In this document: positions 29,295-56,750 of the stretch, piece after piece
Position numbering within the stretch: position 1 is the stretch's first letter
How the letters are laid out: every line of letters begins with the position of its first letter
NCBI RefSeq assembly: GCF_023055435.1
Contig: NW_025963779.1
Span: 20,708,001-20,772,000, forward strand
Length of the DNA stretch: 64,000 nt
From: Haliotis rufescens
Lineage: Eukaryota
Direction: 5' to 3'
The notes under the pieces: generated by a model
Told to the model about the DNA's origin: nothing
The model's input: the letters and a program-made list of their open reading frames with translations, nothing else
Databases searched by the model: none
Program-made: the position numbers and the translations under genes

Positions 29295-30418
29295 ATGCTT
29301 CTCAGTCTAGGCACCCTGCTCGTAGCGCAGTTCCTAGGAGGACACGCCCAAAGTTTAGCTCCTGGTAAGTATGTTAAACCATAAAAAATATGTATATTTT
29401 AAATCTTTATTTTGAATTAATGTTTATTGATACGAACATGCCCGTGAAGATCCGGGGTACAATATGTCTTCAGCAACCCATGCTTGCCGTAAAAGGCGAC
29501 TACGCTTGTGGAAAGAGGCGACTAACGGGATCGGGTGGTCAAGCTCGCTGACTTGGTTGATGCATGTCATCGTATCCTAATTGCGTGGATCGATGCTCAT
29601 GATGTTAATCACTGGATAGTCTGGCCCAGAGTCGATTACTTACAGACCGCCGTCATATAGATGGAATATTGCTGAGTGCGGCGTTAAACTAAAAACAAAC
29701 AAACAAACACACAAATGATACGAACATGTGAGTATTTTTTCGATACCGTTTTTGTGCTCACGCTATCAAACACTGGTTGGTTTCCTTCAGGAATGTATTT
29801 GCCTTTGTCTTCAATACCCGCCACACACTCAGGTACAACACATTATTCAGAGGCCCTAAAGCCTGGGCTATGCTGAGTGTGGGATTCATTAAATAACTTA
29901 GTATTATAGTGTTGTGATCCCATGAGGGAAGTTGTATTATTGAATAAGGCAATATTGTTACAATGACAATGGATGATACTATATGTAATGTATTCCTTTT
30001 GAAAATAAACTGTCATGACATTTAGACTTATCTAATCGTCAACCCGATATTTAGTGTTAGCCAGCAAAAGAGAATGTTTCACTGGCTTGATGTCGACAGG
30101 AGTCATCTCCCTTTTCACTCCTCCCAAGATACCGACGCGAACTGTTCATACAGGCAATTCTCATTGAACTTGAGGACCGCCTCCGTGGTCTAGTGGTAGA
30201 GCGGCGGAGAGCGGAAGGTCCGGGGTCATACCAAAGACGTTAAAAGATGGTACTTGTTGTTACCCTGTCTGGCGCTCGGCATTAAGGGGCTAAAACAAGG
30301 ACTGGTCGGCACGGAGTCAGTATACAGTGTCTGAGTGGGGTATTCATGTGAAACTGCGGCATGGTATCTCAGTGGGCTAGCACTATAAATCGGTATTAGT
30401 CCAGACTAGCACAAGCAG

Positions 30419-30500
<82 letters not shown>

Positions 30501-33500
30501 ATGCACGTCGCTATATAAGTGCAATAATCCCAATTTCACCTCACTTCACCTATTAAACTTGAACAATTATCATGGACTTCATATGAATATTTTATTTATA
30601 TAAATCAACACATGTGAACTTGTTGGTATTGTATTAATGAGTCCATTCTGGCACCGTTGGCCATCGTTTCAGTTCTCCAGATTTGACTATGAAATAGGAT
30701 CATTATTTAATCATTTGATTCACGATGAATTGTTATTGGAACAACACATTTGCAGTGCGGGCGAACTGCTTTGAATGAGCATTCTTCTGTGTGCATGCAT
30801 GATAAGGATTTTGTCGGCTTTATTTCACACATGTTCAGCCAGTTAAAGATTAGATAACAAAGGCTTTGAATAAGCCATTTAACTTGTAATTACCATTTTC
30901 ATTTTCCATATACTTGTTCGTTGTTAAGTCTTTCGAGCCTGAGATATTCACGAAAATAAAATACTTGCATAAAAAACATTCCTTAAGATATCTATTGAGA
31001 TAGCAATAAAATCCATTCTTTCAGCAGAAATTTCTTACGAATATGGAATATATTTGTCAACTTAGATTAGACTGCATATTTAAATATTTCCACATACAAT
31101 AATGCAACACTCTATTTTCAGCCATACAGAAAACAGTAGTCCGTTAATGGAAATGGCCAATATTTTAGGTTTATGAAAACATAAACGCGCGCGAAAGATA
31201 ATTGCTTTGTTAGCCAATGAAATGCCATGGAATCACTTGAAATTATGTGCTTGGTTAAACCACCAACATCCTCAAACATATTACAAGTTTAAGTTTGTTT
31301 AACTGAGTTTATCATACCATCATTCACACTATATGATGGCCCAGCAAGATATGTTCCTAAAAAAGAAACGCAAAACCACATTTTTGGTGTGAGAAGTAAA
31401 TAAAAGGGTCAAAACCGTTTCTACAATCATAAGACATCCCTGAATCTGTTGTACGATTCCTACTATATCCTAGGCACGTGTTTATTAATCACTAGCACTA
31501 TCACTTGGTGATGATCACACATATCCACTGCTTATCTGAACACTTGGTCATTAATGGCATCTTGCGAAAGGACAACAGTGGACACATGAACACATTACAC
31601 GGAGTCAAACCTGCTATTTCGGCGTAACAAATAACGCTTTACCCATTAGACTCCGCCATCGCCCCTTAAACAATAGAAGGAATCTCCTGCATTTACTTAG
31701 GAAAAAATCACATCTGCTTGCGACTTGTTGGTAGTTAATTACAAAATTATAGAACATGGTCCACGGAACAAGCCAACCTTTGTCTCTTTGTATCTTGAAA
31801 TTTAGCTTTGAATATTCTCCAAAATATGTATCAAAATGTATTAAAATTATTTTATGTTCATTTTCCCCCGCCCTTTGCAGAGTTGCGTACCTTGGGCACG
31901 CCAGAAACCTATATGGTTGTGGGTTCGAATCCCGGTTCGCCCCGATTATGTTTCTAGGTTTGTCAGCTCGGGAGATTCACCGAAGTGGTAAACGTCTGAG
32001 ACCTGCTTCACTTCGGGCTCTCCTCCCACATTAAGCTGACACGCCGTGATATAACTGGAATACTGTTAAAAGCGGCGTTAAACCTAATTCACTAACTCAC
32101 TGAATGATGCAATGTGGTGAAACTGTTAGACCACAGGTTTGAAAAGTCAGGTAAGAAGCAACCATCTGCCAACAGCGTATTCCCCTCCGTTTCGTTGATT
32201 CCCTGACAATCTCATTTCCAATATTTTACCACAATATATTGGATGCTTAAAAGAATATGTTGATCAATGTATATTAAATATATCTGTTCATAATTCATAT
32301 GAAATAAAATGCAGGAGCATGTGGTTGTTTGTCAAGGCTTTCAAGCAAGGACATTCTCTCATTATGATGAAGAGCCACACGACCTGTTTGAGACGAGAAA
32401 TAGGATACATTGCATGAACTTATGTATACTCCAAAAATATAGAGTGAGTGAGTGAGTATGGTTTTACGCCGCTTCTTGATACCAATCAACCTTTTAAATT
32501 CCATGTTTAGACATTTTGTTATTACATCTATAATATATGTACTATGTTAAACACGTTTCACGGGGAATGGCTAAGAACGTCAGTGTTTTCTCTCCACCAG
32601 CCCTTCGTTTCACCTGACCAAGTTTGTTTGGCTAATGTTGCATGTTTCCCTCCCCAGGTGTGTTTGACCCAAACTGTAGAGACCACCTGGACAATTGTAA
32701 GGAGTTCCATTCGGACACGTGTATCAACGCGCTGTTTGAGCAATGGGTGTTTGACAACTGCCGCCAGCATTGCAAACTCTGCATTGGGCCTAGTACGTAT
32801 ATGCACTGTTATACTGCAATCTGGTTGATATTTATAACACTTAGTGATTTAAAGACATTACACAGCGTCTGCTTGTTTGTCGACATGACAAAGTAACATA
32901 CACAATATAACACACAATATATATCCACAGATAATTCTTGGAGTTCAAAACGTTTTGAAATTTCCAAGATAGTATTAAACCTTAAACTAACAGGGATTAA
33001 TGAATCAGATATTGCACATGTGCTACTAAATTTTATTGATGTAACTAAAACGGAAGTAGTTATTATTCAATAGTGTTACAACGTGTTTCAATGTACGATG
33101 AAGCGGTAATAAAATCAGACGTATCCCAATCCAAATTGATCAGCCTTGTTCGTAGCAATTAACCAATCAGAATAAAGTGTTTGATGGTGTCATGATAGTT
33201 CTTAATCGATCCAGCGATAAGTGCGCCTTTGGTCAATGAGCAATCATGAAAATATTCACTCCTCAAACGTTCTTAACCATCATCCTGAATTACAGCTGTA
33301 TATTTGTTTGTTTGTTTGTTTGTCGTTTAACGCCGCACACAGCAATTTTCCTGCTATAGGACGGAAGTCTGTAAATAATTCAGTATGGACCAGACCATCC
33401 AGTGATTGACATCATGAACATCGATCGACGCAATTGGGATACGATGACATGCATCAACCAAGTCAGCGAGCTTGACCACTCGATTCCGTTAATCGTCTCT

Positions 33501-55403: not shown

Positions 55404-55445
<42 letters not shown>

Positions 55446-56750
55446 CAGTAGTAGTGACAAAACAGTTAACTCAATCATTCATTCACACACAACACACGGG
55501 CTGTAGTTGCAAATGCTTTGCCCCCGTGTTCAAATACAAATTAGTCAGTAGATCGGGTATTATGAATTAATTCGCTCTGAATTACCAGGATATAAATGAC
55601 AGCTAACCTTTCTAAAGATACATCTCCAAAATGATATGTTTTGACATAAGTAACTGAATTGTATTATTAATTCCTGCATTTGTCATATAGGTAAAGTCTT
55701 CTACATATGTAGGGGCGGTCGGGTAGCCTAGTGGTTAAAGCGTTCGCTCGTCACGTCAAAGACACGGGTTGGATTCCCCACATGGGTACAATGTGTGAAG
55801 CCCATTTCTGGTGGCCCCCGCCGTGATATTGCTGGAATATTGCTAAACGGCGTAAAACCATACTTACTCACTCACTCACTCTTCTACATTTGTTACTCAT
55901 GCTGTCAGTCACTGGTTAACAAAGATAATCATCCTCGATTTTCCTTCCATTCTGTTATCATAAAACCCGGACCAGTTCGCCACCCATGCCTCTTTCCGGA
56001 ACTGACGCCTCAGTCTCTCACGCCAATCGAAACGCTTTTTGTCAGAAATGATCTTCTGGAAAGAAAGTTTTCATGAGTATTGAGACAGGAACAAAAAAGT
56101 CCCAGTTCCCAGTTGTATTTGATACGTTTCAATGCGAGCCCAGTAGGCCTCCTGGTAAATTATACTGCTTTTTCAAAAAGGAAAGAACAGAGTAATTTGA
56201 ATGGACGGAAATTTGAAGCGTCCTGTCATTCGAATGAGACTCAAAATGAAGCTAAGGTGTTGAATTGGCCCAAGGAATTTATCATAATAGAATGGATATA
56301 TAACTACACCGGATCGAGGATGGGGACTTAAGACAGAATGTTTTACCGCTGCTAGGTTCCCCACCGCCCGCCTCCCCGCCTCCCCTGTGTAAAGACCATC
56401 TGGACAACTGTAACCAGTTCCAGGCTGACACGTGCACCAACAGCTTCTACCGGAAATGGGCGGAGGATAACTGCCGGAAGTCGTGTGGGTTCTGTGGCAG
56501 CACCACGCCTGGTAATGAGCTGATTGGTCGAACTCAGTATTAACTCTCATTCTCACTATTGAAAGGAAAGTTAACACAACTTCAGTATGTTAAACGAATG
56601 CTTACTCTATGTTTGCCTCTGATACGAGTCAACAGTTATTCTATGCGCACAAAAATCAAAATATCGCCGACAATACAACAGTTAATGCAACTGGCAAGAC
56701 TTCATGTTGCAGGTGTGCCCACCCCTCCGATGCCCACAAGACATTTTTAG
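52694..56750 (+). CDS. Secreted 2x ShKT protein, divergent paralogue 4 (126 aa)
   Basis: Exons 52694-52772 (signal MKEVILGLLPLLLAVVLVDAMSPPPL), 54697-54804 (CTDFLPNCDSYADSACTGTYESWARVKCARRCGFC), 56356-56511 (Pro linker plus CKDHLDNCNQFQADTCTNSFYRKWAEDNCRKSCGFC) and 56713-56750 (GVPTPPMPTRHF*). All introns are phase 1 and in frame (381 nt). AATAAA at ~56795. Confidence 0.83.
54389..54554 (+). mobile_element. SINE family A
   Basis: TSD ctggtacacct. Confidence 0.92.
55192..55405 (-). mobile_element. SINE-like family C, 5'-truncated, inside a (GTA)n microsatellite
   Basis: Flanked on both sides by (GTA)n. Confidence 0.82.
55712..55879 (+). mobile_element. SINE family A
   Basis: TSD cttctacat(a/t)tgt. 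Confidence 0.9.

Follow-up and report, generated by a model that had tools for sequence, protein, structure and literature searches.

What are four small, probably secreted proteins, each built from two copies of the domain that forms the sea-anemone potassium-channel blocker ShK, doing in an abalone? The question is raised by the window analysed here, a stretch of 64,000 nucleotides (nt) from Haliotis rufescens (RefSeq assembly GCF_023055435.1, contig NW_025963779.1, positions 20,708,001 to 20,772,000 of the forward strand), in which the genes g1 to g4 encode such ShKT proteins; positions below are those of the window. A first-pass annotation, made from the sequence alone, had proposed a cryptic, expanding and positively selected family of toxin-like pattern. 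We find four intact genes, all of them already catalogued, three of which are recent tandem copies with a real divergence hotspot between them in exon 3. By analogy, and with a confidence close to but short of an even chance, we favour a role as secreted two-headed ShKT binders in the defence of mucus or gut surfaces, not as potassium-channel toxins.

Four intact genes and a recent triplication

The genes g1 to g4 are real genes of the secreted type, with a known architecture. Read exon by exon, each has four exons, GT-AG introns that are all in phase 1 and no stop in frame, and the exons encode in turn a predicted signal, a ShKT domain, a linker with a second ShKT domain and a short tail, which confirms the layout given by the first-pass annotation (signal, ShKT, Thr/Pro linker, ShKT, short tail). 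The products measure 127 (g1), 127 (g2), 130 (g3) and 126 (g4) amino acids and hold 6+6 cysteines each; in g3 the usual stop is lost through a 9-nt deletion, which adds three residues. All four match uncharacterised Haliotis rufescens proteins in RefSeq (XP_046332871.2, XP_046332900.2, XP_046332899.2 and XP_046332904.1 for g1 to g4), so the cluster was wrongly called cryptic.

The N-terminus of every product carries a hydrophobic stretch with a Kyte-Doolittle maximum of 2.4-3.1, which by hydropathy makes it a candidate signal peptide. Pfam ShK (PF01549) is found in 4/4 whole proteins at 33.7-51.5 bits against a cut-off of 20.9, as the earlier annotation had expected, and is the best match for 8/8 single domain exons, six of them above the cut-off and two at 16.5 versus 20.9 bits. 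Six cysteines and a C-x3-C-x2-C end recur in all eight domains. No Pfam family besides ShK was found in the four proteins, and exon 4 is followed by a stop and a poly(A) signal, which leaves no catalytic or partner domain. The one domain modelled singly, g4 domain 2, is predicted to be short-helical (predicted local distance difference test, pLDDT, 92.8); a whole-protein AlphaFold model built on a 7-row alignment reached a pLDDT of 36.9 and was discarded.

Expression was read from contigs of four presumed RNA runs (X15, X16, X18 and X19) aligned to g3 and g4. In the g3 alignment all three introns are spliced in X15, which bears the species label of the best-matching DNA runs, and in X16, from another species, while intron 2 is spliced in X18 and intron 3 in X19. 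The contigs of X15 and X19 are of the type shared by g2 and g3 (copy-2/3 type, as opposed to the copy-1 type of g1). The predicted spliced transcripts thus exist for this type, and the genes are expressed at least in the copy-2/3 form.

A head-to-tail triplication from 28081 to 49175 gave rise to g1-g3, with both junctions (35104-35107 and 42331-42334) on 4-nt microhomology. The proposed expansion of a four-gene family therefore holds for these three and not for g4, which is 34-37% identical to them and has no common intron sequence with them except repeats. The closest match of g4 domain 2 among g1-g3 is their domain 1 (19-20 of 36 residues), a likeness in sequence that suggests exon shuffling of phase-1 modules. 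The three units have a mosaic history, and at most positions comparison with outgroups shows g1 to be the derived copy. Over the gene body (29900-33943) g2 and g3 are sisters, 118 of 156 variable sites being specific to g1, and around the unit junction all three lie at about the same distance from one another. Intron 3 holds a minisatellite, each 125-bp unit of which carries a further copy of the exon-3 donor site preceded by an AG, and the number of units varies among the three copies. No donor paralog for the copy-1 loop with more than 57% identity was found outside the cluster, among 27 matches.

We consider it improbable that the copies are uncollapsed haplotypes, an artefact of assembly. 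Three distinct sequences cannot be two alleles, so at least two loci are real; moreover, the head-to-tail junctions are clean, a DNA search of the genome with exon 2 gives three matches, all in the window, and H. asinina has two proteins. What remains of this concern, which the first-pass annotation itself had raised, is that g2 and g3, with a non-coding divergence of 1.6% (84/5123), could be alleles, a difference within their reach, and that one annotated protein of the g1-g3 type occurs in H. cracherodii in the protein clusters examined. The copy-1 loop recurs in the DNA run X1 of the same species with 0 differences over 168 nt, although X1 may be the assembled animal itself. Contig depth in X1 (copy-1 14.9, g4 15.4, a hint of fewer copies) was rejected as a copy number, depth being no valid copy measure.

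A divergence hotspot in the second domain

Between g1 and g2, 0/70 nt differ in exon 1, and exons 2-3 hold 14 amino-acid-changing codons and 1 purely synonymous codon, exactly as first counted. As evidence for selection the 14:1 count is misleading, because two further synonymous steps lie inside changed codons, which gives 15 non-synonymous to 3 synonymous changes by sites, and because there are about 3.7 non-synonymous sites for each synonymous one. The claim that changes cluster between cysteines while all 12 are kept stands as to the cysteines, which would be spared with a chance of 0.13, but the clustering is uneven: exon 2 has 3 of the changed codons and exon 3 has 11, of which 7 fall between Cys1 and Cys3 of domain 2. 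For g1-g2 the ratio of non-synonymous to synonymous rates (dN/dS) is 1.35 by site counting (Fisher p 0.46); the g1-g3 pair gives 1.25 and the g2-g3 pair 0.38. A codon likelihood model gave an omega of 1.0-1.2 (likelihood-ratio test p 0.80-0.99); one estimate is 1.16 (p 0.80 for a difference from 1), and the g1 branch reaches 1.9 (p 0.37). These tests rest on 18 differences and have low power, and positive selection with dN/dS above 1 is not borne out.

The comparison with non-coding DNA gives a different picture for one exon. Columns within 8 nt of a gap and a misaligned block (31095-31235), which had raised the divergence to 3.9%, were masked, and the resulting baseline for g1 versus g2 is 179/5123 columns, or 3.5%. 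Exon 3 differs at 15/153 nt (9.8%; p 4e-4), a level that 0.2% of non-coding windows reach, and its hotspot holds 10 differences in 30 nt, where no non-coding window exceeds 5. In exon 2 (3/135 nt) there is no such excess. The proposal that the exons diverge faster than the introns is thus upheld for exon 3 and not for exon 2, and dN/dS is not significantly above 1, so that the first of the grounds for refutation named by the first-pass annotation applies in part. The exon-3 hotspot is real, but these tests cannot tell selection apart from old lineages or clusters of mutations.

The likeness to conotoxins, a conserved signal followed by a hypervariable mature region, fails. The identical signal exon is no sign of signal conservation, because exon 1 sits in a near-identical promoter and intron tract, which is mostly non-coding over its 585 nt; among 70-nt non-coding windows, 19% show no difference between g1 and g2. 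Between species the signal evolves no more slowly than domain 1: g2 and its H. asinina counterpart differ at 10/23 residues in the signal, 6/36 in domain 1 and 10-12/36 in domain 2, the g2 type and H. rubra at 7/24, 7/36 and 11/36, and 3/5 changes among g4 orthologs fall in the signal region. Conotoxin precursors combine a conserved signal with a positively selected mature peptide, according to the available excerpt of PMC9363990. The resemblance is one of pattern only (a signal exon identical in three recent copies, cysteines kept, changes between them), whereas the abalone proteins are without a pro-region, vary in their signal across species and show no dN/dS significantly above 1.

None of the 12 cysteines is missing from the orthologs in H. 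cracherodii, H. rubra and H. asinina. The g4 orthologs of close species are 96% identical, g4 domain 2 is identical in H. cracherodii, and the copy-2/3 type differs from H. cracherodii by at most 7 residues. Two H. asinina proteins differ at 5/126 residues, every one of them in the Cys2-Cys3 loop of domain 2, a clustering with p 9e-6 if the changes are independent, which a single conversion tract would void. The DNA run X14, labelled as a second species, yields a pair of exon-3 contigs: the first is of the copy-2/3 type, and the second, copy-1-like, has the same residues as copy 1 at positions 83, 85 and 86 and lies 10 nt from g1 (8 non-synonymous and 2 synonymous changes by hand reading). X14 thus holds both loop types, and the types are therefore older than that species split, for which the plain reading of the sequences would be a duplication predating a recent speciation. 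Pooled hand counts are non-significant, at 12:3 for the copy-1 type (p 0.48) and 22:8 overall among the rows listed (omega about 0.9), which, given six fixed cysteines in the exon, would be a high value for a conserved gene. In five other ShKT clusters, where the selection test was to be replicated, 0 pairs of at least 75% nucleotide identity were found among 38 domains. A distant paralog (L046:1704-1811, G000 C24, 15.158 Mb) matches the H. asinina protein P0006 at 10/11 residues in the loop from Cys2 to just past Cys3 and differs in the remaining domain; this likeness may reflect an ancestral state, convergence or conversion.

Selection as the driver of the domain-2 loop has, in our judgement, about an even chance. 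The competing account, neutral drift of duplicates, bears on the diversification and not on the protein's job: the triplication would be ordinary copy-number variation, the copy-1 type would be relaxed, and the loop excess would come from a few clustered mutations or conversion tracts. We rate it as a serious possibility, somewhat less than evenly probable. It sits well with the likelihood estimates of omega, including that on the copy-1 branch, with the chance of sparing every cysteine and with the copy-2/3 type of the RNA contigs in X15 and X19. Several g1-g2 differences are runs of adjacent bases, and multinucleotide changes are reported to inflate selection tests (excerpt of bioRxiv 10.1101/165969). 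Pure relaxation, however, predicts divergence at intron level, which the density of the hotspot exceeds; the H. asinina pair is separated at the same loop, and the second species has an intact exon 3 of the copy-1 type, with ten further changes. A bolder view, which we think unlikely, is that a non-venomous grazer has retained two forms of one surface loop, with two specificities, in the long term and beyond species limits: the loop would be a balanced, trans-species site of recognition in a secreted family of mucosal defence, conversion would homogenise the rest of the unit, and the cluster would be the tip of a large abalone ShKT repertoire.

Surface binders, toxins and other candidate roles

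A profile search returned 632 relatives at E up to 0.001. Among 34 of the best 150 scanned for domains, 27 carry ShK only, 2 more have spurious extras only, and 5 place ShKT on extracellular proteins (two ADAMTS, VWA, TILa and chitin-binding peritrophin-A), with up to 39 ShK repeats per protein. To judge by sequence, such relatives suggest a binding module of general extracellular use. With 67 distinct ShKT domains in the own-genome loci examined, this grazer has a large family; when 150 of 276 candidates were scored across the 1.33-Gb genome, at least 56 matched ShK, spread over 12 contigs, and the same subtype forms five or more clusters besides this one. Five such clusters (L038-L057; G000 C24, C79, C101 and C594) contain 38 more same-subtype domains with Pro/Thr-rich linkers. 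The atlas neighbours of the cluster are nematode ShKT-only clusters, at a score of 0.92.

The first-pass annotation did not assume channel blocking, and this caution was justified: a Lys-Tyr pair is absent from 8/8 domains. The aligned residues are Gln-Trp and Val-Trp in g1-g3, and g4 domain 2 alone has Lys-Trp, which aligns with the Lys-Tyr of an anemone toxin at E 0.22. Lysine plus an aromatic residue at this position occurs in 1/67 own-genome domains and in 19/658 domains of relatives; against this background the g4 Lys-Trp was rejected as proof of a dyad and is a candidate lead only. Mature type 1 toxins of voltage-gated potassium (Kv) channels, such as ShK and BgK, are basic, and net charge per domain is 0 to -3 in H. 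rufescens, g1 being the most acidic (mature -6). No dibasic site for the release of single peptides lies between or beside the g1-g3 domains. The special closeness to ShK seen in the first annotation finds no support, the letters in common being family consensus; a profile of 35 abalone domains scores best with a metalloprotease ShKT domain, MMP-23 and aurelin and reaches ShK at E 0.97; a PDB sequence search with a 7-protein profile gave 0 matches at E up to 10. What the abalone proteins have in common with sea-anemone ShK-type toxins is the six-cysteine motif, an Asp after Cys1, the C-x3-C-x2-C end and the short-helical model of g4 domain 2; they differ in having two domains and no evident release site, a cysteine spacing of 6-7-12-3-2, no Lys-Tyr, a neutral or acidic charge and weak sequence scores. 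By the features tested (no Lys-Tyr, charge of 0 to -3, two domains per chain) they do not belong to the Kv toxin family.

It is accordingly improbable, in our view, that these are defensive ion-channel modulators, that is, true ShK-like toxins, at which the framing of the first-pass annotation hints. The fold family, and the g4 Lys-Trp in a domain identical in H. cracherodii, speak for it, yet one lysine-aromatic case among g1-g4 is within chance, charge and missing release sites go the other way, and abalone are grazers. Two-domain ShKT precursors do exist in venomous snails (PMC6409789): in the excerpts available, multiShKL 5 of the vampire snail Cumia reticulata, a secreted protein of 123 residues with two ShKT domains, belongs to a family with frequent gene duplication (PMC6409789), and it resembles the abalone proteins, as do the Vexillum multi-ShKT peptides (PMC9363990), in being a gastropod protein of about that length with a signal peptide, a Pro-rich spacer, two ShKT domains and mostly no dyad. 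Those proteins were obtained from secretory glands of snails that are predators or blood feeders, in contrast to a grazer's, and are likened by architecture, not sequence orthology; multiShKL 5 itself is reported at negligible expression (PMC6409789).

Secreted surface binders, the role we favour, would work as follows. The signal would be cut after about residue 18, three disulfides, which in ShKT domains pair as C1-C6, C2-C4 and C3-C5, would close each domain, and the Thr/Pro linker, presumably O-glycosylated, would tether the two domains into a two-headed binder. This would hold a microbial or matrix surface and so limit colonisation or stress damage, as the nematode MUL-1 paralogs do, with the domain-2 loop setting specificity. 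The array would change by unequal crossing-over and conversion, which would keep upstream DNA and exon 1 alike while the copy-1 and copy-2/3 loops persist. In C. elegans, loss of a four-gene ShKT-only MUL-1 cluster is reported to raise sensitivity to Pseudomonas, and the cluster to protect against oxidative stress (excerpt of PMC13273113). Like MUL-1 and the secreted two-ShKT protein SYSM-1, the abalone products are small ShKT-only proteins of a non-venomous animal, in a tandem cluster and with a short Ser/Thr-rich linker (PMC13273113); the nematodes are another phylum, likened here by architecture, and gut expression, p38 control and stress roles are nematode features. ShKT domains are reported from other molluscs too, again from excerpts: limpet pedal mucus contains a ShKT domain without the dyad (PMC7333891), the mussel digestive gland is enriched in ShK domains, read there as metalloproteases (PMC5549309), and mussel transcripts hold 119 ShK signatures (PMC3039611).

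Several points weigh against this role. Function rests on analogy, and the run descriptions are coded as to tissue. Among the rows listed no copy-1-type transcript and no g4 splice joint appear, where contigs drop variants and silence is not implied. When differences within 2 nt are merged, the exon-3 excess falls to p 0.045 and that of exons 2+3 to p 0.26; synonymous changes in exon 3 are also raised (3 versus 1.2 expected, beside 12 versus 3.8 for non-synonymous ones), and the selection tests are non-significant throughout. Absence of the dyad, moreover, is no bar to channel action: the available part of PMC6409789 describes Lys-Tyr as neither needed nor sufficient, and MMP23 as modulating Kv1 without it.

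Two further roles were weighed against surface binding. That the proteins are cysteine-rich secreted stress modulators, a redox buffer or an inter-tissue signal as proposed for MUL-1 and SYSM-1, is quite unlikely in our estimate; SYSM-1 is a secreted two-ShKT protein and loss of MUL-1 paralogs raises reactive oxygen species (excerpt of PMC13273113), but a redox sink has no need of a variable surface loop. The likeness of the g4 orthologs of close species, and the few residues that set the copy-2/3 type apart from H. cracherodii, speak against gamete or larval recognition proteins under sexual selection, as does the greater variation among paralogs than from one species to another. In favour are the fast evolution for which gamete proteins of abalone, such as lysin and sp18, are known and the variation of the loop between species; we nonetheless hold this role to be highly improbable.

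The window and the place of the cluster in the family

Table 1. Positions of the ShKT genes and associated elements in the window.
Feature	Position	Strand	Basis and remarks
Tandem unit 1, ~7.0 kb	28081..35107	+	Breakpoint analysis; unique DNA upstream of 28081
Near-identical tract (upstream DNA, exon 1, intron 1 start)	29000..29584	+	g1 vs g2: 3 substitutions + 1 indel in 585 nt; tract chosen after looking
g1 (LOC124115795)	29295-34772	+	Exon reading, RefSeq
g1 exon 1, predicted signal peptide	29295..29364	+	Exon reading
g1 exon 2, ShKT domain 1 (32675-32782)	32658..32792	+	Exon reading, Pfam
g1 exon 3, Thr/Pro linker + ShKT domain 2 (33823-33930)	33791..33943	+	Exon reading, Pfam
Divergence hotspot, Cys1-Cys3 loops of domain 2	33830..33861	+	g1 vs g2: 10 differences in 30 nt
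125-bp minisatellite, intron 3	33940..34516 (4.6 units); 41292-41743 (3.6 units); 48391-48592 (shorter, unit 3)	+	Repeat scan
g1 exon 4, Pro-rich tail + stop	34747..34772	+	Exon reading; ATTAAA at 34821
Tandem unit 2, ~7.2 kb	35104..42334	+	Breakpoint analysis
g2 (LOC124115809)	36467..41999; exons 36467-36536, 40027-40161, 41143-41295, 41974-41999	+	Exon reading, RefSeq
Tandem unit 3, ~6.8 kb	42331..49175	+	Breakpoint analysis; unique DNA after 49175
g3 (LOC124115808)	43694..48857; exons 43694-43763, 47126-47260, 48242-48394, 48823-48857	+	Exon reading, RefSeq, splice joints
g4 (LOC124115812), old paralog	52694..56750; exons 52694-52772, 54697-54804, 56356-56511, 56713-56750	+	Exon reading, RefSeq; poly(A) signal AATAAA at 56795
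g4 ShKT domain 2	56388..56495	+	Sole domain of g1-g4 with Lys-Trp at ShK dyad position

Elsewhere in the window, a single open frame of at least 3367 amino acids (2-10105, plus strand), rich in Lys, Glu, Ser, Thr and Gly and built of 93-bp (31-residue) and higher-order repeats, runs off the 5' end. A 260-residue open frame at 20263-21045 (plus strand), helical and acidic in look, has a weak Pfam match below cut-off, and the first exon of a cytochrome P450 gene lies at 61597-61979 (plus strand; PF00067, 49.1 bits). Large minisatellites occupy 14244-17332 (54 bp), 17531-18405 (23 bp), 24144-25114 (51 bp), 25940-26379 (44 bp) and 60031-61312 (52 bp).

Literature searches, at the level of their listings, gave no description of ShKT-only proteins of abalone, and a 2019 account, in the part available, reports secreted single-domain ShK peptides in molluscs only from the venomous Cumia (PMC6409789). 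Secreted ShKT-only proteins and tandem clusters are already known in snails and nematodes, and g1-g4 were catalogued, so the significance of the cluster is modest. A large ShKT family in a grazer is nevertheless a candidate source pool for recruitment by venomous snails. Should selection be what maintains the two loop types, they would offer a compact, testable marker of the interaction between host and microbes in abalones that are farmed or endangered.

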